A stretch of 64,000 nt of DNA from an uncultured Collinsella sp. (GTDB taxonomy: Bacteria; Actinomycetota; Coriobacteriia; Coriobacteriales; Coriobacteriaceae), in contig CALKBP010000035.1 in NCBI GenBank assembly GCA_937989885.1, positions 5,427 through 69,426 on the forward strand, written 5' to 3'. This document shows positions 3,173 to 53,649 of the stretch, one piece after another. A program made the position numbers and the translations under genes. A model generated the notes under the pieces. It searched no databases. It worked only from the letters and a program-made list of their open reading frames with translations, and had not been told where the DNA came from. The first letter of the stretch is position 1; the number at the start of each line of letters is the position of its first letter.

Positions 3173-3203
3173 GTGGCAAAGGGGCAGTCCCGCATGTCAC
3201 ATC
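3173..3203. repeat. Degenerate copy of the 'gtggcaaaggggcagtccc...atgtcacat' REP-like palindrome family
   Basis: ggtggcaaaggggcagtcccgcatgtcacat lies immediately after the ABC gene stop. The motif is shared with copies at 25094, 38474, 48139, 49686, 52137 and 53619. Confidence 0.45.
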
Positions 3204-3282
3204 GAAAAGAAGGCGCGCCGGGGGCGGATTCCCTGGCGCGCCGTTTGTGTTGGCGTTCATGCTGTGGCGGTTGCCCGCGGCC

Positions 3283-3987
3283 CTAGCGTTCGTCCACAAG
3301 TTTGGCGACGAGGGCTTTGAGCTCGGCCACCTCTTGCTCGAGTTCCTTGACGCGACGGGCGTTTTCGGTGATGCCCTGACGGTTGAGGGCGCTCTGCTCG
3401 GCGGCATCGTCGGGCATGTACTCGCGATGCTGCTTGGCGTCGAAGCTCTCCTCGAACACGCGGCAGCCGTTGCGCTTGATGATGCGCCCGGGCACGCCCA
3501 CGACGGTGCAGTTGTCGGGGACGTCCTTAACGACGACCGAGTTGCCGCCGATCTTGACGTTGTTGCCAATGTGGATGTTGCCAAGCACCTTTGCGCCCGT
3601 GCCCACCGTGACATTGTTGCCCAGGGTGGGGTGGCGTTTGCCGGTCTCGTTGCCGGTGCCGCCGAGCGTGACGCCCTGGTAGAGCACGCAGTTGTCGCCC
3701 ACGATGGCAGTCTCGCCGATGACGACGCCCATGGCGTGGTCGATAAAGAAGTGCTTGCCGAGCTGCGCGGCGGGATGAATCTCGACGCCGGTGATATGGC
3801 GGGTGATTTGCGAGAGCACACGGGCGAGTGAGCGATGGCCGTGTTTCCAGAGCCAGTGCTCGGGCACGTGGTTCCACTTGGCGTGCAGACCAGGATAGGA
3901 AAGGAAGATGACCAGACCGTTTTGCGCGGCGGGGTCCTGCGCCTGGACGGTCTTGATGTCCTCGCGAATGGTATTGATAAAGCTCAC
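3283..3987 (-). CDS. cysE: Serine O-acetyltransferase
   Basis: Left-handed beta-helix hexapeptide region [71 protein letters not shown], typical of CysE. Probable GTG start at 3987 preceded by aagggagggcgg. C-terminal coiled-coil-like tail ([17 protein letters not shown]). Confidence 0.85.
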
Positions 3988-4171
3988 TGGCCGCCCTCCC
4001 TTAGCGCCATGGCAATGCGATTCACTAAAGTATAGCGATTCGCTAGGGATTAGGAAGGACAATCTTGGCGGCTTTGGGTGACAAGTGTCAGTTATGCAAA
4101 CTTGCTGGTAATGAAGTAAGACTTTTGAGGGGTTTGGCCCGCGCCCGCGCCGCAACCGTATACTGGTCAAC

Positions 4172-4858
4172 TTGGACGTGTCCGCGCCCACAACTGAGAG
4201 GTTTTACTTCATGGGTTTCATCAATTTTATCGCCGAGCTGCTTAAGGACCCGCGCACCGCGATCGCCAGCTGGATCGCCGCCGGCCCGCTTATGGCCTAC
4301 GGCTGCGTGTTCCTAATCATCTTTATCGAGACGGGCGTGGTGTTCTTCCCGTTCCTTCCCGGCGACTCGCTGCTGTTTGCCTCGGGCTTCTTTGCCCATA
4401 ATGGCGGCTTTAACATTGTTGCGCTTCTGGCCACCGCATGGGCCGCAGCCATCCTGGGCGATCAGTGCAACTTTATGATCGGCCACTTCTTTGGCCGCAA
4501 GATCATCGCCTCGGGCAAGGTAAAGGCCATGACGCCCGAGCGCATCAAAAAGTCCGAGGATTTCCTAGATAAGTGGGGCCATCTGGCCATCTTCCTCGGT
4601 CGCTTCTTCCCGTTCATCCGCACCTTTGTGCCTTTTATCGCCGGCATGGGCGGCATGCACTGGCGCAACTTTGTCGTCTTTAACGTGCTGGGTGGCATTA
4701 CCTGGTCGACGGTCTTTACGCTGCTGGGTTACTTCTTTGGTGGCATTCCGTTTGTGCAGGAGCACTTTGAGCTGCTGATCATCGGCATTGTCGCCGTGTC
4801 GATTATCCCGACCGTGGTCGGTCTGGTTAAGGCCAAGCTCGGTAAAAAGAACGCCTAG
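4172..4858 (+). CDS. DedA/VTT-domain family membrane protein
   Basis: [29 protein letters not shown], the characteristic DedA motif, within a multi-TM protein; divergent from cysE. Confidence 0.75.
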
Positions 4859-4888
4859 TCCGAGCTTGTTTTCGGACGTTGATTCCAA

Positions 4889-4922
4889 GGCCCGTCATCG
4901 GATTCGATGGCGGGCCTTTTGT
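4889..4922 (+). terminator. Rho-independent terminator after dedA
   Basis: ggcccgtcatcggattcgatggcgggcc hairpin followed by tttt. Confidence 0.6.
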
Positions 4923-5148
4923 GTTGAAGGCAAATGAAAATACTTTACTTAGTTAAAGAAAAACGTTTTATCCAAGGCGCGCGGGGAGTACAATCACCTG
5001 CATGCGAATCGACGCGTCATCGGCTTTGATGCTGCCCGCGTGTCCTACCCGGCTCTACGCTTCCGGGTATGCGACGTTGCGACGCGGCCGGCTTCGGTCC
5101 TTGCGTGCGGGTTCGCGAGTATGCAACCGTGTATGTAAGGAGCGACAT

Positions 5149-6201: not shown

Positions 6202-6225
6202 GCTGTCTTGTATGTCCGGCCCGAG

Positions 6226-6332
6226 GGCGACCTTCCTTTCCGGCGCGTCCTCGGACATGAAAGAACCCCCGCTGCGCACTACGTGCGGCGGGGGTTCTTT
6301 CGTCCTGCGGAGTGCGCCGGAAAGGAAGGTCA
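6226..6332. repeat. Nested long palindrome downstream of ilvE (terminator-like, no T-tract)
   Basis: Inner perfect hairpin gaaagaacccccgc...gcgggggttctttc. Outer arms ggcgaccttcctttccggcgcg / gtgcgccggaaaggaaggtca. Confidence 0.5.
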
Positions 6333-6685
6333 CCCCCGGGCCTGCGTTACCTCGGCGCAGTCGTTACGGGCAATATAGATCTGAATAGAGATGGTGCGCG
6401 GCCTTTTGCCGCGCTTTTGTTTTGGTTCGCGCCATGTGGGGGTGGTGGCGACGTGCATTTTTGCGAGTATTCTGCAATCGAAGGCCACTGCATACCGACT
6501 TCGGGCGAAAAATCGGGATTTCTCGATGTTTTCTACGAATGATGGGCGGGGTTATGGGCTGACAGCGTTTGATTTGCAGGGATATTCGCGGTCTTTGGCA
6601 TTTATCGTGGCGCCCGAAGCCCTTGGTTATGTTGAATACTCCTAAAAATGCACGGTGCTTAGAGGGGGACCTTCGCAACAAAGGA

Positions 6686-6720
6686 AACCGCCCCGTCGAA
6701 GTATGCATTCGACGAGGCGG
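6686..6720 (-). terminator. Rho-independent terminator for lemA (hairpin also usable on + strand)
   Basis: aaaccgccccgtcgaagtatgcattcgacgaggcggttt. On the minus strand the hairpin is followed by a T-rich run (tttcctttgtt). Confidence 0.55.
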
Positions 6721-6759
6721 TTTATGCATATACCCGATTAAGGATACGCTGCGGATCTG

Positions 6760-10169: not shown

Positions 10170-10329
10170 GCCACGAAATGCGGCCATCTACTACGTTTAG
10201 TCGAGCATCCTCGACTATCCCGGAATATGCGAAAATAAAACCGCAGGTAGACGACTTGCCGATTTTTGAAAAAGCCGGCTATGGTTGGCTCCTGCGGCTT
10301 AAACGTAGTAGATAGGCCCCTTTCGTGGC
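10170..10329. mobile_element. MITE-like element (~160 bp, ~28-bp terminal inverted repeats), copy A (inverted relative to copy B)
   Basis: Ends gccacgaaatgcggccatctactacgttt ... aaacgtagtagataggcccctttcgtggc. Internal core aaaaccgcaggtag (= ctacctgcggtttt on the other strand) and a small internal palindrome ccggctttttcaaaaatcgg. Near-identical to 37075-37234; related to 46651-46810. Confidence 0.7.
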
Positions 10330-10344
10330 ACAGCGTCAGACCAG

Positions 10345-10425
10345 TCCAATTGGGACGGGGCTTATTTGACCACTTGTCGATCTGATTGCCCAAGTAGTCA
10401 AAAAAGCCCCGTCCCAAATTAGCTA
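10345..10425. repeat. ~25-bp inverted repeat (ttgggacggggcttatttgaccacttg / caagtagtcaaaaaagccccgtcccaa)
   Basis: Read directly; lies between the MITE copy and the SRP RNA. Confidence 0.5.
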
Positions 10426-10461: not shown

Positions 10462-10586
10462 GAGCGCCTAGCGCGTTCGATGGGTTCGGATGACGACATG
10501 TTCCGAATCTGGTCAGGTCCGGAAGGAAGCAGCCATAAGGAGCCTCTGTCGGGCATCCGAATCCATCGAGCGCACGGGCGCTTTTT
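10462..10586 (+). ncRNA. ffs: Signal recognition particle RNA (small 4.5S-type SRP RNA)
   Basis: Contains the invariant domain IV sequence GGUCAGGUCCGGAAGGAAGCAGCC (24/24 identical to E. coli 4.5S RNA). Flanking arms pair as one long hairpin (gcgcctagcgcgttcgatgggttcggatg / catccgaatccatcgagcgcacgggcgc) followed by ttttt. Confidence 0.85.
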
Positions 10587-10599
10587 GGTGCCGCGACAT

Positions 10600-10694
10600 G
10601 GCCCGGCCGGCGACGAGGTATTTGGTGTCTCGCTGGTCCTCGGCTGCGCCTGCGGGATCGCTCGACTACCAAATACCTCGTCGCCGGCCGGGCC
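10600..10694. repeat. Perfect 27-bp inverted repeat with 41-nt spacer immediately downstream of ffs
   Basis: ggcccggccggcgacgaggtatttggt ... accaaatacctcgtcgccggccgggcc, read directly. Confidence 0.7.
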
Positions 10695-10913
10695 CCGTCG
10701 TCCAAAAATCACCCGTAAAGGCGCGTTTAGCTGAACAATTCAATCCCGTGCTTAGTGGCGCTCGCTGGCGTTGCCAAAACATTGGCTGCTACGTGCCTTG
10801 GGCGCTAGTGACCGTTGCCCTTACATCTGTAACGAGTTGCTTACGCATCCCCAGGGTTCGCCGTACTATCATGAATCAGATTGAATAGAGATGATGATAG
10901 GGAGCGCCTTTTT

Positions 10914-14642: not shown

Positions 14643-15908
14643 CTAGGGCGCGAGCGTGTCAACGGGGGCAACGATGATGCCCTCGGGCGTTGTGTGGACC
14701 GGCATGCCGAACCCGATGACGATGAGTTTGGCCGCGGGAGGCCTCTCGCCGCGTTCGACCAGCTTGCGCTCGAGTCGAAGCAGGTTTGCAGACGCCTCGG
14801 GGATCTGCGGGCTTCCGAGTTTTACTTCCACGGCAATCCAAGTTCCATCGCGCCTGTGTATAACGGCATCGACCTCGAGATCGTCGGCGTCGTGGTAGTG
14901 GGACACCGATGAGTCATTTGCGGCGGCATAGACCTTAAGGTCGTGCAGGACGAGGGATTCGAAGAGCAGCCCCAGTGTCTTCGGGTCGGATGCCAATGAC
15001 TCCGGATTTGCTCCGAGCAGCGCAACGGCAAGCGAAGGGTCGGCGAGGTGCCTTTTCGCACTTTGCCGCAGCTTTACCGGCGACCTGAGCGCCGGATGCC
15101 AAGCCGGGATATCGTCGATGATATTGATTCGTCTCAGAGCATCCATGTATCTGGAGACCGAATTCTTCGAAACGCCGGTACCGATATCTTTATCGATGGA
15201 CTTCGATCCAGCAAGTGTCGACTCATTTCGCGCAAGCGATGTCAAAAGAGACCTGACCTTGACCGGATCACGTTTGACGCCGTCAGTTCTAGAAACATCC
15301 GATTCGCATACGCCATCAACATAAGCAGCGGCAATCCGCATAGCATTTTCAGTTGTTTTCCCCATCGCTTGAGGCCAACCACCGCGACACAGCAAATCGG
15401 CGATGCCGGCGACACCAGCGATCGATCCGACCGCCTGCTTGGCGGGGTGGCCGGAAAGCAGCGCTCTAATCGAAGCCGCGCCCGAAGAAACGCCGAGCTC
15501 AAACAGCGTCATGGTATCCATTCGCAATCTAGCTATTCGCCCAACGCCGCTATGCATTGGCTGCTTCGAATCTTGCGGCGTTGCTGAGCCCGTAAGAATA
15601 AACTGTCCGGATTCTCCCTGTCTTGCGTCACACTCGAAACGTATGGCATCCCATAGTTTTGGTTCTTCCTGCCATTCGTCGATGAGTCTAGGCGACGGTC
15701 CTGCTATTGCCTGCGCTGGGTCGATCCGAGCCAACTGGAGAGCGGAAAAATTTCCAGCCGGATCGGAAAGAGACAAGGATGATTTGGCAAAACGTCTGGC
15801 CGTAGTGGTCTTTCCGCACCACTTCGGGCCTTGAATGAGAACCGCACCGAAGATATCGAGATTATGCCTGATTGCCTTGTCGATGCATCTGTCTACATAC
15901 CTATCCAT
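14643..15908 (-). CDS. AAA+ ATPase fused to a C-terminal PD-(D/E)xK-like domain (COG1373 / AAA_14 + DUF4143 architecture), paralog 1
   Basis: Walker A LIQGPKWCGKTT near the N-terminus. C-terminal LEVDAVIHRRDGTWIAVEVKLG matches a D...E-V-K nuclease-like motif. Same architecture as the genes at 48312 and 52281. Confidence 0.7.
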   Translation of the reverse strand: MDRYVDRCIDKAIRHNLDIFGAVLIQGPKWCGKTTTARRFAKSSLSLSDPAGNFSALQLARIDPAQAIAGPSPRLIDEWQEEPKLWDAIRFECDARQGESGQFILTGSATPQDSKQPMHSGVGRIARLRMDTMTLFELGVSSGAASIRALLSGHPAKQAVGSIAGVAGIADLLCRGGWPQAMGKTTENAMRIAAAYVDGVCESDVSRTDGVKRDPVKVRSLLTSLARNESTLAGSKSIDKDIGTGVSKNSVSRYMDALRRINIIDDIPAWHPALRSPVKLRQSAKRHLADPSLAVALLGANPESLASDPKTLGLLFESLVLHDLKVYAAANDSSVSHYHDADDLEVDAVIHRRDGTWIAVEVKLGSPQIPEASANLLRLERKLVERGERPPAAKLIVIGFGMPVHTTPEGIIVAPVDTLAP

Positions 15909-15954
15909 ACCGTCACCTTCTCAACTTGCCTTGATTATGTATTTTACCAGCTGC

Positions 15955-16045
15955 GTGGTGACGATTGACGGTAATCTGTGGTGACGATTGATTACGAACT
16001 ATGGTGACGATTGGCGGGTATCTGTGGTGACGGTTGTCATCGATT
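15955..16045. promoter_or_regulatory. Four direct repeats of tggtgacgattg at ~22-25-bp spacing, upstream of the AAA+/nuclease gene start (15908)
   Basis: gcgtggtgacgattgacgg / tgtggtgacgattgattac / tatggtgacgattggcggg / tgtggtgacggttgtcatcgattc, read directly. Confidence 0.5.
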
Positions 16046-16240
16046 CGGGGCATAGGGCAGCTTAGCTGTCTCAAAGCTTATAGATTTCGGGGCTTACACC
16101 GCGGACGTTTTGCCCCCATCGGTGTCGCCCATGTCGCCAATCGACAGACGGTGGTTTACATCTGTCACGTTAGTACTAAGATATTCATCTAATAAATTGC
16201 ATTAGTGGCTTTAGTTTTGGGGGAAACGAGCAACGTGACT

Positions 16241-25093: not shown

Positions 25094-25125
25094 ATGTGAC
25101 AAAGGGGCAGTCCCTTTGTTACATT
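25094..25125. repeat. REP-like palindrome family 2, copy 2 (aatgtgacaaaggggcagtccctttgttacatt)
   Basis: Near-perfect palindrome directly after the nitroreductase stop. Confidence 0.65.
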
Positions 25126-25249
25126 TCATATCGCCGCGGTGGCCTAAAGGCCGTATAAATGTTTATTTAGCTGGGAAAACAGTGCCATTCAAACATGGGC
25201 CGATTACCTATAATTCCTTCGAACATTAAAGTTGGGAGGAAACCGGCTT

Positions 25250-36992: not shown

Positions 36993-37074
36993 GAAACTCC
37001 TTGCGGTAAAGGTGCGTTTGCAGCACAGAGCTACCAAGGATACCACCCGTCCCAAAAGACTGTTTTGGGGTTGC

Positions 37075-37234
37075 GCCACGAAAGGGGCCTATCTACTACG
37101 TTTGAACCGTATGGGTCGACCATCCCCCGGTTTTCCGAAAATCGGCAAGCCGTCTACCTGCGGTTTTAATTTCGCGAAATTCGGCATGGTTGAGGGTAAT
37201 CGGTTAAACGTAGTAGATAGGCCCATTTGGTGGC
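37075..37234. mobile_element. MITE-like element, copy B
   Basis: gccacgaaaggggcctatctactacgtttgaacc ... ggttaaacgtagtagataggcccatttggtggc. Internal ccggttttccgaaaatcgg palindrome and ctacctgcggtttt core. Confidence 0.7.
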
Positions 37235-37403
37235 GAACGAATCAAGCCGAGGTGCAAAATAGCCCCCGCCCCAGAAAAATCGTCGTTAAGGTAGCAAAAA
37301 GCCCCGCGGGCAGGAGGCTGCTCGCGGGGCAAAGAAGAGGGGCATATTTGTGGCGGACCGAGGGGTTCGGCATGGGGTTTCTGCCGCGGCCGCTCTTAAG
37401 GCA

Positions 37404-38444
37404 TTACAGCTCGACGAGCTGGCCGGTCTCGGCGGCCTCCTTGATGGCGTTAAGCAGCGTGAGCGTCTTAACGTTGTCGGCGGGGGTCACGACGGGCTCG
37501 ACCTCGCGGCGAACGACCTTCACAAAGTGCTTGAGCTGCATCTTGTGCGGCAGCGCCGGGTCGACGGCCGGAATCTCCATCTGCAGCGGCTTGTGCCAGT
37601 TGGAGGCTCCGTCGTAGGAGAACTGGTGCAGGCGGGGCAGCGAAAGGGCACCCAAGGTTCCGCCAATAAAGTAGGCGTCGGCGTCGAAGGGGCGGTACTG
37701 CGGATCCTCGCGAGCGGTGGCCTCCCAGTTCCAGGGGCTGGCGGTGGCGTCGGAGATGGTCATGCTCGCAAGCGCGCCATCGGCAAAACGGACGTTGACC
37801 ACGGCGGAGTCCTCGGTCTCAAAACCGCGGGCGGCGCTGGACTGCATGCCCTGGACGGCAACGGGCTCGCCCAGCAGGTAGCGGAGCAGGTCGACGTCGT
37901 GCACCAGGTTGACCAGGATCGGGCCGGCACCCTTCTTGCGGCGCCACTCGACATCGAAGTACTCGTCATTCTTATAGATCATGTAGTGGAAGCTCGACAC
38001 GGTGAGCTTGCCCAGCTCGCCGGACTCGATGATCTCCTTGGCCTTGTTGACGAGGGGATTGTGGCGACGGTGCTGACCCACGAGTACGGGCACGCCGGCG
38101 GTCTCGGCCTCGGCGGCAAAGGCCTGGGCATCCTCGAGGTCGTTGGAGATCGGCTTTTCGACCAGCGGCACGATGTTGCGCTTCACGGCCTCGCGGGCAA
38201 CGCCCAGGTGCAGGTCGTTGGGGGTGGCGATGATGACGGCCTCGGGCTTGACCTCGTCCATCATCTGGGCGGGATCGGTAAAGAACGGCACGCCGGCGGC
38301 CTCGGCCGTGGCGCGGGCGCCCTCAAAGGCGTCGGCGATGGCGACGAGCTCGGCCTCGGGCTCCTCGGTGACAAAGCGGATGTGGTTGCGGCCCATGGCG
38401 CCGGCGCCGATAACGGCAATGCGGACGGGGTTGAGCTCAGACAT
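37404..38444 (-). CDS. Gfo/Idh/MocA family NAD(P)-dependent oxidoreductase
   Basis: N-terminal Rossmann RIAVIGAGAMGRNH, EKP motif (VEKPISN). Confidence 0.8.
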   Translation of the reverse strand: MSELNPVRIAVIGAGAMGRNHIRFVTEEPEAELVAIADAFEGARATAEAAGVPFFTDPAQMMDEVKPEAVIIATPNDLHLGVAREAVKRNIVPLVEKPISNDLEDAQAFAAEAETAGVPVLVGQHRRHNPLVNKAKEIIESGELGKLTVSSFHYMIYKNDEYFDVEWRRKKGAGPILVNLVHDVDLLRYLLGEPVAVQGMQSSAARGFETEDSAVVNVRFADGALASMTISDATASPWNWEATAREDPQYRPFDADAYFIGGTLGALSLPRLHQFSYDGASNWHKPLQMEIPAVDPALPHKMQLKHFVKVVRREVEPVVTPADNVKTLTLLNAIKEAAETGQLVEL

Positions 38445-38473: not shown

Positions 38474-38506
38474 AATGCGACAGAGGGGCTGTCCCTTTGT
38501 CGCATC
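38474..38506. repeat. REP-like palindrome family 2, copy 3 (aatgcgacagaggggctgtccctttgtcgcatc)
   Basis: Between the MFS stop and the oxidoreductase start. Confidence 0.6.
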
Positions 38507-38513: not shown

Positions 38514-39785
38514 CTAAGCGGACTTCTTCTTGCTGTCGGAGACCATCATGTAGACGGTGAGCACGACGGCGATGGCGGCGATCACAATGGCGCCGTAGAA
38601 AGACTGCTGGTAGGCGGCGCTGCCGGCCTCGGCGTGATACAGCACGGCGGTGATGGGCTGGCTGATCCAGGTGGAAGCGGCATAGCCCAGGAACATGATG
38701 CCGTAGTTGACGCCGATGTTGCTGGTGCCAAAGGCGCCACCGGTGAGCGGCGGGTAGATGACGAGCAGGGCGCCAAAGCTAAAGCCGAGCAGGGCGAGTG
38801 CCACAAAGAACATGCTCTGCGTAAAGCTCATCGACATGATGACGAGCGCGACGATGGTGACGACAAGGCTGATGAGCAGCGACTTATAGGCGCCGAGCTT
38901 GTCGATGATCTGGCCAAAGGACAGACGACCGACCAGGTTGGCGCAGGTGTTGACGGAGACGACCACACCGCCGAGGGCGACGGCCGCGGCGCTCGTGGGG
39001 TCGGCGAAGAGCTGGACGGCGGCGATGGAGGCAACCTTGCCGACGAGCAGGGTGCCCGCGGTGGCGGCAAAGGCGAAGGTGACGATGAGAACCCAGAAGC
39101 GCGGGGTCTTGACCATCTCGCCCGGAGTGAGGTCACCGAAGGTGCCGGCATGCGCGCCACCCTTGGGGGCCTCGAAGCCCTCGGGCAGCCAACCGGCCTC
39201 GGGGGCCTTCAGGAACAGGGCGGAGGCGGCAATCGTCACAAAGAAGATGACGCCGAGCGCCTTAAGGGCTCCAAAGATGCCCAGGCTCGGGATGAGCAGC
39301 GAGGCGAGCACCGGGGACAGCACGGCGGGGCCGGCGGTCGAAGCGGCCAGGGTGATGCCAGAGGCAAGGCCCTTCTTGTCGATAAACCACTTTTGGCCGG
39401 TGGTGAGCGCCGGGTTGTAGCCCAGGCCGTTGCCGACGGCGGCGACGAGCGAGAACCACAGGTAGAACTGCCACGGCTCGGTGACGGTGCCGGACATGAA
39501 CCAGCCAACGCCGTAGCACACGGCGGCAGCGATCACGACGTTGCGCGGGCCGATCTTATCGGAGATGCGGCCGGCGAAGATGCCCGTCACGGCCATGATG
39601 GTCTGGAAGACGGGGAAAGCCCAGGTAAGGGCGCTCGACCACTCGGGGTAGACGGCGAGCAGATTTTTGCTCACGACGGAATACAGCGCGATGGAGCTGA
39701 TGAAGAACATGGTGACGCACGCGGCGGAAAGCACGACGGCGCGACCCTTGTTGGAGTTGGTGGAAGCCATTGGACTCTTTCTCAT
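38514..39785 (-). CDS. MFS transporter (OFA/oxalate:formate-antiporter-like subfamily)
   Basis: 12 predicted TM helices; GRISDKIGPR loop motif after TM2. Confidence 0.7.
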   Translation of the reverse strand: MRKSPMASTNSNKGRAVVLSAACVTMFFISSIALYSVVSKNLLAVYPEWSSALTWAFPVFQTIMAVTGIFAGRISDKIGPRNVVIAAAVCYGVGWFMSGTVTEPWQFYLWFSLVAAVGNGLGYNPALTTGQKWFIDKKGLASGITLAASTAGPAVLSPVLASLLIPSLGIFGALKALGVIFFVTIAASALFLKAPEAGWLPEGFEAPKGGAHAGTFGDLTPGEMVKTPRFWVLIVTFAFAATAGTLLVGKVASIAAVQLFADPTSAAAVALGGVVVSVNTCANLVGRLSFGQIIDKLGAYKSLLISLVVTIVALVIMSMSFTQSMFFVALALLGFSFGALLVIYPPLTGGAFGTSNIGVNYGIMFLGYAASTWISQPITAVLYHAEAGSAAYQQSFYGAIVIAAIAVVLTVYMMVSDSKKKSA

Positions 39786-41934: not shown

Positions 41935-42038
41935 GGAGTTCCCCGAGGGAGACGGGGTGTTTGCTCCGCGCGCAGTTTCGCAGCGAAGCGAGAATGTTTG
42001 AGCACGGAGTAAACACCCCGTCTCCCTCGGGGAACTCC
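41935..42038. repeat. 33-bp near-perfect inverted repeat with ~38-nt spacer (ggagttccccgagggagacggggtgtttgctccg / cggagtaaacaccccgtctccctcggggaactcc)
   Basis: Read directly; lies in the convergent gap between the LysR gene and the ABC exporter. Confidence 0.65.
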
Positions 42039-46290: not shown

Positions 46291-46391
46291 GAATTAGTGT
46301 TGCTCCTTTCTTTAGTTAGGTAGTGGAATTGTTTTGTGCCTAACCAATTTAGGAGCGTGAGAAATCAATGTCAAGGTACCAAACTTATTAA

Positions 46392-46419
46392 GTTACGGCG
46401 TTTTGCCAAACGCCGTAAC
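46392..46419. repeat. Hairpin gttacggcgttttgccaaacgccgtaac followed by gctcgacgctgc (family 4), copy 1
   Basis: The same hairpin + flank recurs at 61531-61570 directly after prfA. Confidence 0.6.
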
Positions 46420-46650
46420 CGCTCGACGCTGCAAGCGTTCCTAAGCGGCAATCTGGCGTTCAATCGTCGGGCATGGCCACAAGGCCTATGCCCTCCTCTT
46501 TCACGCCACCTTGCTCGCTTAGGAACGCTTTCGCTGTCCGTCCTCAACCTGTGATTCCGCCACGGTCCGCTTCGGTGCATGTGGTCCCTTGGGGACGGAG
46601 GAAAAGGGATCACTTTGAGCTGTGATGACGCCATTCGAAGCGGCCTCGCC

Positions 46651-46983: not shown

Positions 46984-47808
46984 ATGAAGAACACTCAGCT
47001 GCTGCTGATCAACGATATGTGCGGATACGGCAAGGTCGCGCTTTCCGCCATGCTGCCGGTGCTGTCGCACATGGGCTACCGTATCCATAACCTGCCGACG
47101 GCACTTGTGTCCGATACGCTCAACTATCCCAAGTTCTACATCCACGACACCACCGAGTACGTGCGCCAAAGCCTCGCTATCTGGGAGGAGCTCGGCTTTG
47201 AGTTCGACGCCATCTCGACCGGCTTTATCGTGACCGAGGAAGAGACGCGCATCATCTCGGACTTTTGCCACCGCCGTGCGCAAAAGGGCACCAAGGTGTT
47301 CGTTGACCCCATCATGGGCGACAACGGCAAGCTCTATGCGGGCGTGCCCGAGTCCACAATCGGTCTCATGAGGCACCTGCTCGAGTGCGCCGACTACGCG
47401 GTTCCCAACTACACCGAGGCCTGTTTGCTCACCGACACGCCTATCGTCGAGCAAATTACGCCCGATGAGGCCCGCGCCCTTGTGGACGCTGTGCGCGAGC
47501 TGGGTGCCAAGTCGGTGGTCATTACGAGCGCCGTAGTCAATGGCACGAACGCGGTTATTGGTTACGACCATGTGGCGGGGGAGTACTTTACGATTCCCTT
47601 TGAGCTCATTCCGGTCTATTTCCCGGGCACGGGCGACACGTTCTCGGCGGTGCTCGTCGGCCGCGTTATGGCAGGCTGGAGTCTGCAGCGCGCGACGTCC
47701 GATGCCATGCGCGTGGTGGCAGAGCTTATCGAACGCAATGCCGACCAAGAGGACAAATCGGCCGGCCTTCCCATCGAGGCCTGCCTGGATGTGATCGACC
47801 ATGAGTAA
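46984..47808 (+). CDS. pdxK: Pyridoxal/pyridoxamine kinase (PdxK/PdxY, ribokinase superfamily)
   Basis: N-terminal LLINDMCGYGKVALSAMLPVLSHMGY and C-terminal GTGDTFSAVL motifs characteristic of PdxK/PdxY. Confidence 0.7.
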   Translation: MKNTQLLLINDMCGYGKVALSAMLPVLSHMGYRIHNLPTALVSDTLNYPKFYIHDTTEYVRQSLAIWEELGFEFDAISTGFIVTEEETRIISDFCHRRAQKGTKVFVDPIMGDNGKLYAGVPESTIGLMRHLLECADYAVPNYTEACLLTDTPIVEQITPDEARALVDAVRELGAKSVVITSAVVNGTNAVIGYDHVAGEYFTIPFELIPVYFPGTGDTFSAVLVGRVMAGWSLQRATSDAMRVVAELIERNADQEDKSAGLPIEACLDVIDHE

Positions 47809-48130
47809 CGCCGGCGAGGGCGGCATCAGGCCTGCGGGCGAGAGCAAGCCGCTCGGCGCGTCGCGTGGCAAGCGTCCGCGTATCCGCGTGAGCTGCGTGG
47901 ACCAGCTGGGTGCGTGCCGTTGTCACCATGGTCACAAGCCCGGCGACGTTTTTGACTTCGACCGAGACCGCGGCAAGATGTGCGCCATGGCCTGCCATGT
48001 GGGCTTTCCCTATATCGATATCCTGCGCTATGGCGGGACCGTGCCTGGAAACGAGCCCGGCGCGGCAAAGTTCTGCTGCCCCGAAGTCGATACACTGAAC
48101 GTCTGGCTTGCCGAGATCGTTGACGAGTAG
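47801..48130 (+). CDS. Small Cys/His-rich protein of unknown function (possibly TIGR04076-like)
   Basis: 109 aa with clustered C/H (CVDQLGACRCHHGHKPGDVFDF..., CAMACHVGFPY, FCCPEV). Start overlaps the pdxK stop by 8 nt (ATGA-type coupling). Family assignment from memory only. Confidence 0.45.
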   Translation: MSNAGEGGIRPAGESKPLGASRGKRPRIRVSCVDQLGACRCHHGHKPGDVFDFDRDRGKMCAMACHVGFPYIDILRYGGTVPGNEPGAAKFCCPEVDTLNVWLAEIVDE

Positions 48131-48138
48131 TCGAGCGC

Positions 48139-48170
48139 AATGTGGCAAAGGGACAGCCCCTTTGCCACAT
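48139..48170. repeat. REP-like palindrome family 2, copy 4 (aatgtggcaaagggacagcccctttgccacatt, perfect)
   Basis: Read directly. Confidence 0.7.
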
Positions 48171-48211
48171 TCGCCGGTGGTGCCCCTTCTTTTGCTTATA
48201 ATCTCAAATCT

Positions 48212-48292
48212 CTGCATTTCATTTGATTTTAGGTTCTAAAATTCTGCGTTTCATCGATAATCAAGCGTATAAAACTTTGCATTTCATTTGAT
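48212..48292. promoter_or_regulatory. Three direct repeats ctgcatttcatttgat / ctgcgtttcatcgat / ttgcatttcatttgat (~33-bp spacing) immediately upstream of AAA+/nuclease paralog 2
   Basis: Read directly; the last repeat ends 20 bp before ATG 48312. Confidence 0.5.
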
Positions 48293-48311
48293 GACACTGA
48301 GGAGAGAGCCT

Positions 48312-49673
48312 ATGCTGCGCAGGAAAATAGCGGCAGAGCTGGAGCGTTGGCTGAAGTCTTCCGAGCAAAAGGCCTTGTTCATTACGGGTTCTCGCCAGAT
48401 TGGCAAAAGCTATTCGATTCGCGCATTTGGCAAAGCCAACCATGCAACCTACATCGAGCTTAACCTCATGGAAAACCGCCAGGCAAAAGATGCTCTTCTC
48501 GAGGCGCGGGATGCCGATGATTTCATCAGCAGGGTGACGCTTCTTTCGGGAAAGTCGATTGCACCAGGCAAAACGCTCGTGTTTATCGATGAGGTCCAAG
48601 AGGCCCCCGACATCATGACGATGGCAAAGTTCCTTGTTGAGGACGGGAGGTGCCGTTGGGCGTTTTCGGGGTCAATGCTCGGGACCCAGTTCAAGGGCGT
48701 CAGGTCCTATCCCGTGGGGTATGTCCACGAGCTTAGGATGTTCCCGCTCGATTTTGAGGAGTTTTGCTGGGCAATCGGGGTGAGCGAGGGGGCTCGCCAA
48801 ACGATACGTGACGCCTGTATCAGCGAGAGGCCCATTCCTGATTACATTCATGACGCGATGATGGCAAACTTCAGGACCTATACCGTTGTCGGCGGAATGC
48901 CGGAGGTCGTGCAGCGTTTCCTTGACACGCGGGGCGACCTTGCCTCTGTTCGTCAGCTGCAGTCAGAGCTCAACGAACAGTACCGGCGGGATATCTCCAA
49001 GTATGCAAGCGGGCGAGCCCTTCAGGCGCAGAGCATCTACGATCAGCTCCCTATTATGCTCGAGGGCGAAAACAAGCGCTTCGTGCTCAATTCCATTGAC
49101 CCTAAGGCGCACTACGAGAAGTATCAGCGAGATTTTGTATGGCTTGTCGATGCCGGCGTTGCTCTCAAAGCCGATATCGTAACCGAGCCAAAATCGCCCC
49201 TGCTCAAGACGGCACGACCATCGCAGTTCAAGCTATATCAATCGGATACGGGCATGTTGATGGCGCGCTACCCCGTTGGAGTCGCCCAAGCGGCGTATCT
49301 TGATAGCAAGGAGCCCAACCTGGGCGGCATTTACGAAAACGTGGTGGCCCAGCAGCTGGCTGCCCAAAACCGCCAGCTTTACTACTATCAGACAAAAAAG
49401 CGCGGTGAAGTGGACTTTGTGGTCGATGGGCCGGATGGGACGGCTGTTCCGATCGAGGTTAAATCGGGCTCCTATTACCACGCGCACGCTGCGCTCGGTC
49501 ATGTGCTTGATACGGCTGAATATGGCGTAAGGCTCGGGATTGTTTTCTCGAGAGGGAACGTTGAGCGCAACGGAGCGGTTCTCTATTTGCCGCTATATGC
49601 GACCTGGGCCCTTTCGGATGTTTTGGGCGACTCCTGTGCCGAGGGGATAAAGTTGGAGGTCAAGCCGGTCTAG
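48312..49673 (+). CDS. AAA+ ATPase fused to a C-terminal PD-(D/E)xK-like domain (AAA_14 + DUF4143 architecture), paralog 2
   Basis: Walker A ITGSRQIGKSYS; C-terminal GEVDFVVDGPDGTAVPIEVKSG (D..E-V-K). ATG 48312 after ggagagagcc. Confidence 0.7.
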   Translation: MLRRKIAAELERWLKSSEQKALFITGSRQIGKSYSIRAFGKANHATYIELNLMENRQAKDALLEARDADDFISRVTLLSGKSIAPGKTLVFIDEVQEAPDIMTMAKFLVEDGRCRWAFSGSMLGTQFKGVRSYPVGYVHELRMFPLDFEEFCWAIGVSEGARQTIRDACISERPIPDYIHDAMMANFRTYTVVGGMPEVVQRFLDTRGDLASVRQLQSELNEQYRRDISKYASGRALQAQSIYDQLPIMLEGENKRFVLNSIDPKAHYEKYQRDFVWLVDAGVALKADIVTEPKSPLLKTARPSQFKLYQSDTGMLMARYPVGVAQAAYLDSKEPNLGGIYENVVAQQLAAQNRQLYYYQTKKRGEVDFVVDGPDGTAVPIEVKSGSYYHAHAALGHVLDTAEYGVRLGIVFSRGNVERNGAVLYLPLYATWALSDVLGDSCAEGIKLEVKPV

Positions 49674-49685
49674 GGCCAGTCCCGG

Positions 49686-49716
49686 ATGTGACAAAGGGAC
49701 AGTACCTTTGCCACAT
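49686..49716. repeat. REP-like palindrome family 2, copy 5 (atgtgacaaagggacagtacctttgccacat)
   Basis: Read directly; 13 bp after the AAA+ gene stop. Confidence 0.65.
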
Positions 49717-49730
49717 TCATAAGCGTGGAT

Positions 49731-49833
49731 TTATGAGCGTGGATTTTCTCCCACCGAGATAACGAGCGTGGATTTTCTTCCGTTTAGAGCGCACTCGAAC
49801 GCTCAAAGTGGGAGAAAATCCACGCTCGTTTTA
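49731..49833. repeat. Three direct copies of gagcgtggattt(tct) plus one inverted copy, forming a long hairpin that ends in tttt (complex terminator-like structure)
   Basis: gagcgtggattttcttcc ... gggagaaaatccacgctcg followed by tttta. The 28-nt loop contains its own small palindrome gagcgcactcgaacgctc. Confidence 0.5.
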
Positions 49834-49873
49834 TGCCGATGGCGTGGCCCGTGTGTCCGCGCCGCCCGAGCGC

Positions 49874-50320
49874 CTACAGCTGCTCAAGCATAGCGGTGCA
49901 ACCGGCGAGTACATCGCGGTAGGTGGCGTCGAAATTGCCGGTGTACCAGGGATCGGCCACGTCGCCGGGGCGATCGGTCCAATCGAGCAAGCGCGTAATC
50001 TTGACGTCGGGGTCGTCGCCAAAAATGCGACGCAGGCCGCGCGCGTTCTCAGCATCCATATATACAATGTGGTCCCAGTCGCCATACTCCGCGCGACGCA
50101 CCTGGCGGGCACGGTGCGCGACGACGGGAATCCCGACTTCGCGCAGCTTGGCGACCGTGCCATGATGCGGCGGGTTGCCAAGCTCCTCGGTCGAGGTCGC
50201 AGCGGAATCGATGACAAACTCCGTCTCGCGCCCGGCGCGCCGCACCAGCTCGGTAAACACCGACTCAGCCATCGTCGAGCGACAGATGTTGCCATGGCAG
50301 ATAAAAAGAACGCGTTGCAC
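49874..50320 (-). CDS. Low-molecular-weight protein-tyrosine phosphatase (arsenate reductase/LMW-PTP fold)
   Basis: P-loop VLFICHGNICRS (CX5R) at the N-terminus, DP motif (DVADPWY) near the C-terminus. Confidence 0.8.
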   Translation of the reverse strand: MQRVLFICHGNICRSTMAESVFTELVRRAGRETEFVIDSAATSTEELGNPPHHGTVAKLREVGIPVVAHRARQVRRAEYGDWDHIVYMDAENARGLRRIFGDDPDVKITRLLDWTDRPGDVADPWYTGNFDATYRDVLAGCTAMLEQL

Positions 50321-50628
50321 AGGGTTTCCTTTCTAGACAGGGCCGTACGGCCTGCGGTGGCACTGTAACACAGCCCTTTCCAATGAAGCCAACTGCGCAG
50401 AGTGGAGGATGACGCAGCTCACGCCCACCGTCTGATGTAAAGCGGGCAAAAACGTTTTCCACGAAGACAGGGGTGCTCAAGATTTCATGTGTTCCAGATA
50501 CATGAAATCGAAGAAAAACGTGTATCTGAAATACACGAAATTGCACTGCTGAAGCTTCCAGGCGGATAAACACTACTCGTATGGGACGGTTTTCATCGGT
50601 TGCTCGCCACCTTGGGCTATGTTCGCTC

Positions 50629-51930
50629 CTATGCCTGCATCCGGGGCTGTGCTGATTGACGCTTGCGCTCCCAGCGAGCCAACTTAATCGTCACCAGTGT
50701 GAGGGCCCAGGCCACAAGCGAGAACGCGGCGCCCACTGCGCCCACGTACGCAATGCCAATGCTGCTTACCACGGCGCCGCCCACTGCGGTGCCAAACGAA
50801 ATGCCGATATTAAATGCCATGGGCTCAACCGAACTTGCGAGTACCATCGACTTGGGATGGCGGCTGCGTGCCACGTCCATAAAGTGCGTGATGCACGACA
50901 CCGAGAACAGGTACATGAGTAGCGCCAAGCTAAAGACAAAGACCAGCGCGAGCGGCATGGTGCCGCCCACAGCAAACAGCCCGAGTAACGCCGCGGCCTG
51001 CAGCACAAACGTCACAAGCAGTGCCTTCATGCCAAAGCGCGCGTCGATCCATCCGCCCAGGATGTTCGAGATCAGGCAGAACACGCCGTAGGCCATAAGC
51101 GTGGTACTGGCTTGGACCGTGCCCATGCCCAGCACCTGCTCAAGATAAGGCGTCACGTAGCCGTAGAACACATAGACCGAGCCCACGCCAAACAAGAAGA
51201 TGAGCATGCCGGTGATGATGCTCGGCTCGCGTAGCAGCCCCGCCTGCTCGCGGAAGGTGGCGGGCTCATCGGTCTGCCCGGCGCGAGGCATAAACGCCAC
51301 GAGCGCTCCGCAGATCAGAACGGCAAAGGTCAGCGTGCCGTACATGGCTACGTGCCAATCGAGCGTGTCGGCTACAAACTTGCCGATCGAAGTGACAAAG
51401 ACCATTGCCACGGAAAACGCACCATATACCACCGAGATGGCAAGCGAAGTTTGCTGCGGGGACAGAAGCTCAGGAATGTACGTCACGCCCACGGCGAGCA
51501 GCGCACCCGAGACAGAGCCCAGGACAATGCGCGAGGCGAACAGCACTTGAAAGTTGGGCGCCAACGCCATGACTAGGTTGCCGAGCACAAAGACGATGCT
51601 GTAGCACACGAGCAGCTGGTAGCGGCGGAAGCGCCCCGTGCTGAGCGCAAGTACCGGCGTGGCGATAGCGTAGACGAGCGCGAATACGCTGATGAGCTGG
51701 CCTGCGGTGGCAAGCGATATGCCGAGCTCCGTCGCCAGGTCGCTCTCGATGCCGATGACCACGAACTCGGAGCAGCCGAGCGAGAATCCCAACAGCACGA
51801 GCAGCGCCAGGCAGAGCTTGGTGCGCGCGGGGGAGAGCGCGGCGGCGGTTGGCTTACTTTTAGGCGTGGTTGCGGCGGTCAAGGTTGTCACTCCAATGTC
51901 GCATGAATAAGCTGAATTCAGTCCCTGCAA
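50629..51930 (-). CDS. MFS transporter (DHA1-like efflux)
   Basis: 12 TM helices, typical MFS loop motifs; ~40-aa N-terminal leader before TM1. Confidence 0.65.
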   Translation of the reverse strand: MQGLNSAYSCDIGVTTLTAATTPKSKPTAAALSPARTKLCLALLVLLGFSLGCSEFVVIGIESDLATELGISLATAGQLISVFALVYAIATPVLALSTGRFRRYQLLVCYSIVFVLGNLVMALAPNFQVLFASRIVLGSVSGALLAVGVTYIPELLSPQQTSLAISVVYGAFSVAMVFVTSIGKFVADTLDWHVAMYGTLTFAVLICGALVAFMPRAGQTDEPATFREQAGLLREPSIITGMLIFLFGVGSVYVFYGYVTPYLEQVLGMGTVQASTTLMAYGVFCLISNILGGWIDARFGMKALLVTFVLQAAALLGLFAVGGTMPLALVFVFSLALLMYLFSVSCITHFMDVARSRHPKSMVLASSVEPMAFNIGISFGTAVGGAVVSSIGIAYVGAVGAAFSLVAWALTLVTIKLARWERKRQSAQPRMQA

Positions 51931-52136
51931 CTATACCAGAATGTGTCAGGTGCCCGCCCCCTTTGTCGCAGGCTGCGCTTGCCTGTATAGTCGCAATGCA
52001 GGCGAAGATGGTCTCAGGTACATCGCGGGCGACAGGAGATCCCGTGGGCATGCACACGACAAAGGTTGCAGTGGGCGAGGGCAAGTTTGCGCTCGAGGAG
52101 GCCCTCGAGGCCCCCTCCATTCGCGTTGCCCTCGCG

Positions 52137-52168
52137 ATGTGACAAAGGGACAGTCCTTTTGTCACATT
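52137..52168. repeat. REP-like palindrome family 2, copy 6 (atgtgacaaagggacagtccttttgtcacat)
   Basis: Read directly. Confidence 0.65.
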
Positions 52169-52174
52169 CCATTC

Positions 52175-52247
52175 CTTAGAAACTTGCAAATTCTGCAAGT
52201 TTCTAAGGTAACATCTTATAAACTTGCAAAAAATGCAAGTTTATAAG
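52175..52247. promoter_or_regulatory. Two tandem perfect 33-bp palindromes (cttagaaacttgcaaattctgcaagtttctaag and cttataaacttgcaaaaaatgcaagtttataag) upstream of AAA+/nuclease paralog 3
   Basis: Read directly; operator-like, AT-rich relative to the genome. Ends ~33 bp before ATG 52281. Confidence 0.55.
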
Positions 52248-52280
52248 GTTTCATGTCTGGTCGGGCGCTAGGGAGACTCT

Positions 52281-53597
52281 ATGGATATCGTTCGCCGAAG
52301 CCGTTATCTTGATCGACTCATTGCTTTTCAGGATACCGACCTCATCAAAATCGTGACGGGCATACGCCGTTGTGGCAAATCAACGTTATTGGACATGATG
52401 AGGGACTATCTGGCGCAACAGGGGGTGCCAGCCGAGCGTTTGCTGACCTTTAAGATGGAATCTCTAGAGTACGCGGGAATTACGGATTATCTGACGTTTT
52501 ATCGTATGGTTCGGGAGCGCATCGACGGCATCGATCATCCCTACCTGTTCTTTGACGAGCTCCAGAATGTCGAAGGTTGGGAAAAGGCAGTCAACTCGCT
52601 CCGAGTGGATTTGCCGTGCGATATCTATGTCACGGGCTCCAATGCCTTTTTGCTATCGAGCGAGCTCGCAACGCTTATCTCGGGCCGATATGTCGAGGTC
52701 AAGATGCAGCCTCTCACGTTTAGCGAATACCTTGTTTTTCGCTCGATTGATGCGGTCGCCGCTGAAGGGCTTGGTGAGAGGGTCGAACTCGTTTCCAAGA
52801 CGGGCGATCGCCTTAATTCAAATACCGTGCTTGAGCAGTACATAACCTATGGCGGCATGCCGTTTCTGGCCCATGATGAGCCGAGACGTGAGCTGTGTCG
52901 CGACTATATCCGTAGCCTTTACCAGACGATCGTCGCGCGCGATATCCTGTCGCGTGCGACGCGTAGGGGTCGCGGAGCTATCACCAAGCGCGATGTTCTC
53001 GAGCGGCTCTGTGCGTATCTGGCAGACAACATCTCCAACCAAACCTCGGTCAACAAAATCGTAGGGACGCTCAACGAATCGGCAGGCGGTAAGACCAACG
53101 CATCGACGGTGTCGGCATATATTGACGCTCTGGAAGAGACGTACCTGTTTACCAAAGTAAAAAGGTATGACATCAAGGGGCGGGAGCTTCTTAAGACAGG
53201 CGGTAAATTTTACATAGCTGATACGGGAATTCGCAGCTATCTTGACGGATATAGAGGTAGCGATAGCGGAAGGATGCTCGAGAACGTTATCTACAACCAG
53301 CTTGTATTTGAAGGATACGAAGTGTTTTGCGGCCATCTGCGCGCGGGGGAAATCGACTTTGTCGCAATCGGCGAGGGATCGGACCGCAAATATATCCAGG
53401 TTACCGAACGGATCGATGCCGAGGCGACGAGAGAACGCGAGCTGCGACCGCTCAAGCTAAGCACGCTAGGAAAAATTCCTGATTCGTATGAGAAGATCCT
53501 GATTGTCAGGGATGGCGACCATCCAACGGACATCGATGGCATCAGAATCGTGGGGGCAGTCGACTTCTTGTTGAGAAATAAGATTACCCGCGGCTAA
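52281..53597 (+). CDS. AAA+ ATPase fused to a C-terminal PD-(D/E)xK-like domain (AAA_14 + DUF4143 architecture), paralog 3
   Basis: Walker A VTGIRRCGKSTL; C-terminal GEIDFVAIGEGSDRKYIQVTER (D..Q-V-T variant). Confidence 0.7.
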   Translation: MDIVRRSRYLDRLIAFQDTDLIKIVTGIRRCGKSTLLDMMRDYLAQQGVPAERLLTFKMESLEYAGITDYLTFYRMVRERIDGIDHPYLFFDELQNVEGWEKAVNSLRVDLPCDIYVTGSNAFLLSSELATLISGRYVEVKMQPLTFSEYLVFRSIDAVAAEGLGERVELVSKTGDRLNSNTVLEQYITYGGMPFLAHDEPRRELCRDYIRSLYQTIVARDILSRATRRGRGAITKRDVLERLCAYLADNISNQTSVNKIVGTLNESAGGKTNASTVSAYIDALEETYLFTKVKRYDIKGRELLKTGGKFYIADTGIRSYLDGYRGSDSGRMLENVIYNQLVFEGYEVFCGHLRAGEIDFVAIGEGSDRKYIQVTERIDAEATRERELRPLKLSTLGKIPDSYEKILIVRDGDHPTDIDGIRIVGAVDFLLRNKITRG

Positions 53598-53618
53598 ACG
53601 CAAGCAGATTCGTTTCGA

Positions 53619-53649
53619 TGCGACAAAGGAGCAGCCCTTTTTCGCATTC
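53619..53649. repeat. REP-like palindrome family 2, copy 7 (atgcgacaaaggagcagccctttttcgcat, diverged)
   Basis: Read directly; 22 bp after the paralog 3 stop. Confidence 0.55.

Follow-up and report, generated by a model that had tools for sequence, protein, structure and literature searches.

Repetitive extragenic palindromic (REP) sequences and bacterial interspersed mosaic elements (BIMEs) of Enterobacteria and Pseudomonas are palindromes of about 30 nt that are strictly extragenic and lie at the 3' ends of genes and between cistrons. They fold into stable hairpins with compensatory changes in their arms and are hot spots of rearrangement and insertion. REPs of Escherichia coli also sit within operons, and the REP-associated tyrosine transposases (RAYTs) that accompany REP doublets (REPINs) are known mainly from Proteobacteria. 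A palindrome family that is like REP/BIME in size, placement, hairpin and association with rearrangement is present in a 64 kb stretch of DNA from an uncultured Collinsella sp. (contig CALKBP010000035.1; 'the window' denotes this whole stretch). Collinsella is an abundant and extremely strain-diverse genus of the human gut that has been linked to metabolic and inflammatory conditions. The Collinsella gene-end palindrome family, named PAL here, is genus-restricted, low in copy number and clustered. Its copies keep to stop codons and follow the direction of transcription, the two arms co-vary, and the borders of insertions and deletions (indels) fall at PAL far more often than chance would give. 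The reading that we favour, tentatively and with a probability of roughly 45 %, is that PAL is a 3'-end RNA or DNA hairpin repeat of the REP type that is also a recombination breakpoint.

Anatomy, copy number and taxonomic range of PAL

An earlier note on this DNA listed seven palindromes. All seven are present at the sites reported, together with an eighth, decayed copy at 51941–51971 that had been missed. The 27-mer core with up to three mismatches was found at four window sites, against 0.00 in 100 shuffles, the remaining copies being recovered by direct reading, while a half-site scan that required both 15-nt half-sites with at most ten differences gave eight sites against 0.25 in shuffles. 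The consensus is (A)ATGYGRCAAAGGGRCWGYCCCTTTGYCRCAT(T), a 31-base unit (31–33 nt among copies) that as a single strand forms a 13-bp stem with a 5-nt loop. Six window copies fold with −17 to −31 kcal/mol (z=−3.6 to −6.1), and two eroded copies have no strong fold. The repeated part is the palindrome alone, and its flanks are unconserved apart from A or G at position 0 and T or C at position 32. Half-sites were always paired, with a partner for 271 of 271 in the 1.35 Mb of DNA used for open reading frame (ORF) and half-site searches. This absence of orphan half-sites ruled out an uptake-sequence-like word or an insertion sequence (IS) with these termini, and for the same reason two abutted IS ends or a minimal miniature inverted-repeat transposable element (MITE) were rejected. 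PAL has no internal DNA and no duplicated flank, and the same 1.35 Mb showed no parent IS with PAL ends.

Related loci (L001 onward) were obtained by an exact-pattern scan with ATGYGRCAAAGGGRCWGYCC of one genome per GTDB species, which gave at least 120 stretches and, being fished with this pattern, an ascertained sample. Among the matches listed, all were from Collinsella/Coriobacteriaceae save for one metagenome-assembled genome (MAG) labelled 'Ruminococcus', which is itself 98 % identical to the window. There were zero PAL matches in the phage sequences of IMG/VR and of INPHARED, and the sole PLSDB record with copies was the 900-kb record of Collinsella aerofaciens TSDC17.2-1.1 (NZ_OY725717.1), a 'plasmid' that is plainly chromosomal, with ribosomal protein genes, recA, ftsK and rho. 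Family counts rest on 162 copies from about 115 genomes (the 120 listed loci and the window), and these collapse to 28 orthologous sites with seven singletons and four doubletons (Chao1 of about 34). Eight of the approximately 35 sites lie inside this 64-kb window. By comparison, 350 kb of contiguous DNA from the C. aerofaciens record, used as an unselected sample, contained a single PAL, and BLAST located seven PAL places in the whole 900-kb record. PAL is low-copy and clustered, with roughly 30–50 sites per genome. The only PAL of the 350 kb (L122 31123–31171) lies in a convergent gap between a glycosyltransferase gene and dut, where the flanks AGTAAGCCG and CGGCTTACT extend it to a 49-nt perfect palindrome.

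An Rfam scan of the window returned only the signal recognition particle RNA and one tRNA, with no family at PAL. The literature searched held no relevant link between Collinsella and REPs, and the PAL sequence was absent from the texts searched. We regard PAL as a new family in the broad class of extragenic palindromic repeats, of which none was found described in Collinsella or its phylum. A 50-nt motif restricted to Collinsella, HMP2_10134, which lies beside many unrelated genes (Fremin & Bhatt 2021), may be PAL.

Position and orientation at gene ends

Gene ends were determined with our own codon-usage-trained ORF caller, which is crude, except in the record annotated by the Prokaryotic Genome Annotation Pipeline (PGAP). 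On this basis, a stop codon is found within 30 bp of 103 of 154 PAL copies and within 10 bp of 90. In 30 distinct copies the palindrome and the stop codon overlap, with TGA as positions 4–6 or TAA ending at position 1. The distance to the next start codon has a median of 107 nt, and in co-directional gaps 63 copies are closer to the stop and 21 closer to the start. Convergent 3'/3' gaps contain 26 % of copies. Within the window, the earlier observation of copies within a few bp of a gene end applies to six of the seven, at −1, 3, 8, 9, 12 and 20 nt from the stop codon, but not to the copy at 52137, which is in a 350-bp divergent gap. The same note had named copies found equally often inside coding regions as an observation that would speak against its proposal. 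None of the 162 copies was verified inside a gene, and the proposal thus withstands this check. There were eight apparent cases: three (orthologous group 8) were checked and are over-extended starts, and five at the site of a major facilitator superfamily (MFS) gene are presumably the same artefact.

The palindrome is also oriented. On the sense strand of the stop-adjacent gene, 71 copies have A as central base and 18 have T, and 16 of 18 orthologous groups show the centre-A orientation (one-sided binomial, P=7×10−4). Where gene direction and local GC skew were discordant, PAL followed the gene, 20 to 9. This bias bears on the proposal that PAL is a double-stranded DNA site of a homodimeric protein, whether a nucleoid or domain organiser of the matS/MatP type, a REP binder of the gyrase/IHF type, or a regulator, with the gene-end location being secondary. 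Such a site would account for a degenerate consensus that is a perfect double-stranded palindrome, CWG centre included, for the sequence shared among paralogous sites and for the dozens of regionally clustered sites per genome; the window may also adjoin a GC-skew switch, and the outer half-sites GTGAC/GTCAC may resemble matS. However, a symmetric dimer predicts no orientation bias relative to genes and no arm covariation, whereas covariation is seen at pairs 4–28 and 6–26. The copies in convergent gaps have no promoter to regulate, and the search pattern exaggerates how invariant most positions appear. Given the biased orientation and the covarying arms, a double-stranded protein site is less likely, and we consider it improbable.

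Two promoter-related roles were rejected. PAL as an operator does not agree with the convergent-gap copies or with the closeness to stop codons rather than promoters. As a supplier of −35 boxes, its right arm has TTGTCA, yet the spacing to −10-like hexamers is inconsistent. The decayed copy at 51941–51971 alone scored among PALs in the promoter scan.

Covariation of the arms

Matched substitutions on the two arms had been pointed out for individual copies, and they recur across the family. The stem cells of 88 distinct copies are 91.3 % paired, and 30 of the cells carry double changes, compared with 12.8±2.8 in shuffles (0 of 500 reached 30). All double changes are at pairs 4–28 (U–A to C–G) and 6–26 (A–U to G–C) and are significant, and within several orthologous groups the alternative states of these pairs recur. 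Among close relatives, the asymmetric loop bases 14, 16 and 18 flip between reverse-complement states. The invariance of fixed positions on one arm, and the limitation of covariation to degenerate positions, are partly by construction of the pattern ATGYGRCAAAGGGRCWGYCC. This does not apply to the covariation itself, as the pattern does not reach the partner positions 21–31. The per-position conservation profile is confounded in the same way, and no selection was inferred from it. Whole-PAL divergence was 4.6 % against 4.8 % for the flanks, so that PAL is no more conserved than its surroundings. Solo copies decay in place and are not cleanly absent, although this empty-site test is weak given that the loci were collected by the PAL pattern. 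The matched arm changes and loop flips could reflect selection on a hairpin or, equally, palindrome-templated repair by template switching, as known for quasipalindromes.

PAL and transcription termination

A stable, G+C-containing hairpin right after stop codons raises the question of whether PAL is a canonical Rho-independent terminator that is by chance common to several genes. The inner AAAGGG...CCCTTT is like the A-tract, stem and T-tract of bidirectional terminators, and the pckA terminator of C. aerofaciens has a PAL-like core. However, no U-tract was present 3' of the PAL stem, where a T is followed by C or G and then by mixed bases, whereas 10 of 15 Collinsella genes checked (mostly highly expressed) have a stem followed directly by a T run of 4–6. 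A hairpin with a T run was seen at rpsO, rpsT, tsf, pnp, rplS, rpmA, rho, argS and pckA. In addition, PAL was not enriched in a terminator scan, and the copy at 38475 is intercistronic with the next start codon just 30 nt away. A canonical terminator is therefore the explanation to which we give the least credence. The pckA example, at L127 ~3110–3205 downstream of the gene, consists of the hairpin CCACCACAAAGGGGACAGGCACCTTTGTGGTGG followed by TTTTG, which combines a PAL-like core with a U-tract.

PAL at the borders of variable cassettes

Two ATPase genes with AAA_14 and DUF4143 domains, at 48288–49673 (A1) and 52281–53597 (A2), each have a PAL on either side (four of the seven window copies), an arrangement missed by the earlier note. 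The A1 and A2 ATPases are barely alignable with each other, and both match the PADLOC candidate defence family PDC-S01 (E=6.5×10−189 for A1). The A1 cassette (48138–49762, plus strand) consists of a PAL, a 117-bp leader with TGCATTTCATTTGAT repeats, the ATPase gene, a second PAL and a 46-bp tail. It is entirely missing in L037, where the junction has a single CGAGCG; in the window this hexamer flanks the cassette on both sides. The A2 variable segment (51972–53652, plus strand) has the order PAL, ATPase gene, PAL. Its place is occupied in L108 and L037 by about 100 bp and one PAL, and in L013 and L009 by a 5.9-kb PAL-bounded segment with a NUDIX gene and a transporter/UbiD/UbiX/MerR operon.

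Similar variation was found at other sites. In the interval between a haloacid dehalogenase-like (HAD) hydrolase gene and a TetR gene, only some Collinsella genomes have an insert of approximately 380 bp between two PALs (L024 2056–2432; L121 19724–19849). This insert encodes a 41-aa peptide, MTDLIDFVRLLTAVVSFFTALVGLSEALKQRSKRNRRGRRR, annotated by PGAP as WP_022094649.1 in C. aerofaciens NZ_OY725717.1, whose hydrophobic helix and Arg-rich tail are reminiscent of type I toxins. The interval between Dus and ATP-binding cassette (ABC) transporter genes has inserts of 150 bp, 280 bp, one gene or two genes. A survey of all indels of 100 bp or more between the related loci gave 76 locus-level observations, of which 28 abut a PAL (approximately 13 of 34 independent events), while PAL±45 bp makes up about 2 % of the sequence surveyed. 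In 15 of the 17 events with PALs at both borders, the empty allele has exactly one PAL. No recombinase gene was found inside any cassette examined. The idea that PAL belongs to the ATPase genes was rejected, as an ATPase is present in only seven of the 120 listed PAL loci; PALs are also lacking at the ATPase genes of L037 and L112 and at the third one of the window.

The main rival explanation is that PAL is the site of a trans-acting site-specific recombinase, of the att, attC or pdif-like kind, with gene-plus-PAL modules excised as circles and re-inserted at other PALs to build arrays with accessory and defence genes. Inverted arms of about 13 bp around a 5-nt centre are like the core of a recombinase site. 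The rule of one more PAL in the filled than in the empty allele (n+1) in the 15 of 17 events, arrays of up to four PALs in 2.2 kb, cassettes without a recombinase of their own, and a low, clustered copy number would all be expected of such a system. So would an orientation fixed relative to the ORF with a start at or within the stop codon, as for attC. The downstream PAL of L024 also retains a private right-arm variant of the single PAL of L017. Set against this, there is no candidate recombinase beside any PAL in the window or the sampled loci, and the sole tyrosine recombinase seen, at 95078–95998 of the C. aerofaciens record, is Xer-like and stands alone. Many PALs lie behind core housekeeping genes, 13–22 kb apart and outside arrays; the A1 empty site has no PAL; and PAL has no sequence similarity to dif or attC core sites. 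Furthermore, deletion between direct repeats together with homologous exchange yields the same n+1 pattern. Site-specific recombination at PAL is thus unlikely in our estimate. We give a similarly low probability to the more far-reaching idea that PAL serves a chromosomal system of cassette exchange, not recognised before, as its attachment site. Such a system would be attC/pdif-like in function and unrelated to these in sequence, with a host recombinase moving gene-plus-PAL modules from one gene end to another. If that were the case, its modules would include the candidate anti-phage PDC-S01 ATPases, the 41-aa toxin-like peptide and the UbiD/UbiX operon.

Several further features were noted at the ATPase genes. 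Genes 14643–15908 (minus strand), 48288–49673 (plus) and 52281–53597 (plus) all encode AAA_14 and DUF4143 domains, are highly diverged and match PDC-S01. Their upstream regions (15915–16080, 48200–48290 and 52171–52250) contain short repeats private to each gene, namely AATCGTCACCAC four to five times, TGCATTTCATTTGAT two to three times, and TTAGAAACTTGCA...TGCAAGTTTCTAA as two palindromes. They have the look of operators specific to each gene. Downstream of a low-molecular-weight (LMW) phosphatase gene, at 49717–49830 in the window and 2424–2519 in L037, is an inverted repeat with 20-bp arms, GAGCGTGGATTTTCTCCC...GGGAGAAAATCCACGCTC. The A1 cassette is inserted at the start of the left arm of this repeat, and extra partial arm copies lie at the right end of the cassette.

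Proposed role of PAL and points against it

When transcribed, or in single-stranded DNA, PAL would fold into a 13-bp stem with a 5-nt RCWGY loop, and its likeliest role is that of a hairpin at transcript 3' ends or between cistrons. Such a hairpin could act as a barrier to 3' exonucleases or, instead of being a canonical intrinsic terminator, as a stop that is weak or assisted by a factor. The location of the copy at 38475 inside a probable operon supports the intercistronic role. As a pattern, the DNA between two PALs comes and goes in one piece, and related genomes accordingly have either 'PAL' or 'PAL-cassette-PAL'. Being near-identical repeats, the copies also act as crossover points and may provide portable homology. 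Deletion between direct PALs combined with homologous exchange with DNA of other strains would produce the n+1 pattern with no need of a dedicated enzyme. The candidate enzymology is RecA or slippage between direct repeats, or else a dedicated recombinase; the competence genes comEC and dprA are annotated in the C. aerofaciens record. Exchange of PAL-cassette-PAL units would explain how two unrelated candidate defence ATPase genes each came to be bracketed by PALs.

A number of observations weigh against this hairpin-repeat reading. The proposed RNA role is drawn from position and orientation, and the gene-end positions in turn depend on a crude caller. The loci were picked by the PAL pattern, and positional invariance and presence at orthologous sites are partly by construction. 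The hairpin has no U-tract, and PAL is unneeded as a general terminator because highly expressed Collinsella genes have U-tract terminators. The asymmetry between wobble (G–T) and A–C mismatches does not favour the sense strand, being 16 to 20 outside the loop, and at pair 14–18 the sense strand has A–C more often; selection on an RNA stem alone would not predict this. Paralogous copies share sequence and not pairing only, which could mean a sequence-specific protein site. Finally, the empty site of the A1 cassette without a PAL indicates that not every event fits a simple PAL–PAL exchange.

Relationship to REP sequences and RAYTs

The earlier note had called the copies REP-like and suggested looking for a RAYT elsewhere in the genome; in a classical REP family, such a RAYT would mobilise or maintain PAL. 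The 'REP-type' label is partly apt, in that PAL is a dispersed extragenic palindrome that hugs gene ends and has compensatory, hairpin-preserving arm changes, and Y1 (HUH) transposases do occur in Collinsella. However, copy number, doublets and flanking signal do not agree with a REP and, as a fourth point, no RAYT was found in the 1.35 Mb searched. Copies number only dozens. They are singletons, with neighbours 82 bp to 6 kb apart, unrelated DNA between them and mostly direct orientation, so that there are no REPIN doublets, and there is no conserved 5' tetranucleotide. The same ~28 sites recur across ~115 genomes, which points to old, fixed copies. A phmmer search of all ORFs of the 1.35 Mb with RAYT and IS200 queries, to which we give low weight, found no RAYT and only one ordinary IS200. 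The IS200 in L109 (6066–6566) encodes a 152-aa Y1 transposase, has terminal hairpins of its own that are unrelated to PAL, and lies 5.8 kb from the nearest PAL without being flanked by PALs. For these four reasons PAL was not filed as a member of the REP/RAYT group, and mobilisation by a RAYT appears very improbable.

Individual copies in the window

The first copy (3171–3202, plus strand) is degraded, AGGTGGCAAAGGGGCAGTCCCGCATGTCACAT, with one extra base in the right arm (−12.7 kcal/mol, z=−0.8). It overlaps the final base of the TAA of an ABC transporter gene (1162–3171) in a convergent gap with 3283–4191 (minus), and its orthologues in L093 and L099 (orthologous group 10) are intact. The second (25094–25124, plus; −21.5 kcal/mol, z=−5.5), in orthologous group 4 with ten genomes, lies 3 nt past the TGA of a nitroreductase gene (24215–25090), and a K+ transporter gene (25232–27277) starts 107 nt further on. 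The third (38475–38505, minus; −21.7 kcal/mol, z=−5.2) has A as centre base on the minus (sense) strand, 8 nt past the stop of an MFS gene (38514–39785, minus) and 30 nt ahead of the start of an oxidoreductase gene (37404–38444, minus). Within this 69-nt gap it is probably intercistronic, in an operon of short-chain dehydrogenase/reductase (SDR), MFS and oxidoreductase genes. This site (group 6) has the alleles TGCGAC/GTCGCA and TGTGAC/GTCACA.

The remaining copies are associated with the cassettes. The fourth (48140–48170, plus; −31.4 kcal/mol, z=−6.1) is the left border of the A1 cassette, 9 nt past the stop of ORF 47801–48130. The fifth (49686–49716, plus; −17.1 kcal/mol, z=−3.6) lies 12 nt past the A1 stop, in a convergent gap with the LMW phosphatase gene (49874–50320, minus). 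The decayed copy at 51941–51971 (strand unassigned), ATGTGTCAGGTGCCCGCCCCCTTTGTCGCAG, has no fold (z=0.05) and lies 10 nt upstream of the start of an MFS gene (50629–51930, minus). It is orthologous to intact copies in L003, L013, L037, L042 and L108, and in L108 and L037 this orthologue is the sole intact PAL of the 'empty' allele. The sixth copy (52137–52167, plus; −20.3 kcal/mol, z=−5.2) borders the A2 module on its left, 113 nt ahead of the gene start. The seventh (53618–53647, plus; −18.4 kcal/mol, z=−3.6) has a 1-nt deletion, ATGCGACAAAGGAGCAGCCCTTTTTCGCAT, and is located 20 nt past the A2 stop and 76 nt ahead of gene 53724–54581.

Other repeats and features

The genome has several more hairpin or MITE-like repeat families. 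The element at 61756–61946, bounded by terminal inverted repeats (TIRs), had been considered related to PAL. It does share the GGGACTGTCCC core, once, but its inverted ends of ~30 nt, TAGTCATTGGGGACGTTCTTAAATGACTAG, recur elsewhere without palindrome arms (L091, L045, L006, L109 and L062), and the element is a separate MITE-like repeat family. A hairpin repeat, TTAAGTTACGGCGTTTnnnnAAACGCCGTAAC, occurs as a 95 %-identical pair at 46388–46432 and 61527–61571, the latter beginning right at the stop codon of prfA (60463–61530), and a 148-nt direct repeat pair with 91 % identity is found at 55555–55702 and 61578–61725. Self-complementary intergenic stretches of 70–150 nt are located at 6218–6342, 10350–10417, 10574–10716 and 41935–42038, with further self-complementary stretches at 46433–46530, 49761–49830, 55597–55696 and 61620–61719. 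An inverted repeat of ~190–300 bp (10170–10359 and 37046–37234, 79 % identity) has further copies in several other loci. Genomes differ in one copy, the insertion 37001–37298 being absent in L101, which suggests a mobile non-coding element.

A long-hairpin element of ~185 nt lies directly beside PAL copies at two different genomic sites (L074 5768–5950; L085 313–512; L043 4770–4963; L057 1594–1780; L086 1271–1464; L049 1127–1322). The GC skew changes sign at ~52000–56000, with a maximum of cumulative skew, beside the densest cluster of palindromes and cassettes; this region may be the replication terminus.

Significance and comparison with known systems

PAL offers a concrete hypothesis for part of the strain diversity of Collinsella and a landmark for variable cassettes in fragmented Collinsella MAGs. 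As a REP-like family in Actinomycetota, it would allow the gene-end hairpin role to be compared with the proteobacterial paradigm. A dedicated recombinase, if there is one, would make this a new cassette system; otherwise PAL is an ordinary repeat that serves as a recombination substrate.

In contrast to the hundreds of copies of REP/BIME, PAL has dozens, which are clustered. It is near-perfect, has no conserved asymmetric flank (no tetranucleotide of the GTAG/GGAG type, the signal for RAYT cleavage), forms no doublets or BIME mosaics and is hosted by an Actinomycetota gut anaerobe. The uptake-sequence pairs of Neisseria (DNA uptake sequence, DUS) and Haemophilus (uptake signal sequence, USS), inverted repeats that serve as terminators too, are likewise genus-specific and form hairpins downstream of genes, but the repeated unit of PAL is the palindrome rather than a 10–12-mer, and lone half-sites do not occur.

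The pdif modules of Acinetobacter plasmids are similar in being accessory modules (with genes of toxin-like, defence or resistance type) without a recombinase, bounded by one short palindromic site, and in genomes differing by the presence or absence of whole modules. PAL differs in having 13-bp arms with a 5-nt centre, compared with 11+6+11 (dif-type sites being 28 bp long, with 11-bp XerC and XerD arms and a centre of 6–8 bp), and no resemblance to dif, and its sites are chromosomal, tied to stop codons and mostly direct rather than alternating in orientation. Integron attC sites and the Vibrio repeats (VCRs) resemble PAL in several ways: each cassette ORF has at its 3' end an imperfect palindrome whose orientation is fixed and which often overlaps the stop codon, the structure is kept by paired changes, and cassette arrays occur. 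Unlike these sites of 57–141 bp, PAL is 31 bp long and has no R''/L''–L'/R' boxes (GTTRRRY core). Most PALs follow scattered core genes and no IntI, attI or Pc platform was seen; no integrase was found in the part of the window scanned with Pfam (34 of ~45 predicted genes, including every PAL-adjacent gene). PAL is somewhat like attC and pdif sites in the way it borders cassettes, with neither their sequence features nor a known enzyme in common, and closest to REP sequences in form and position, with its size, its extragenic placement and its hairpin at gene ends.

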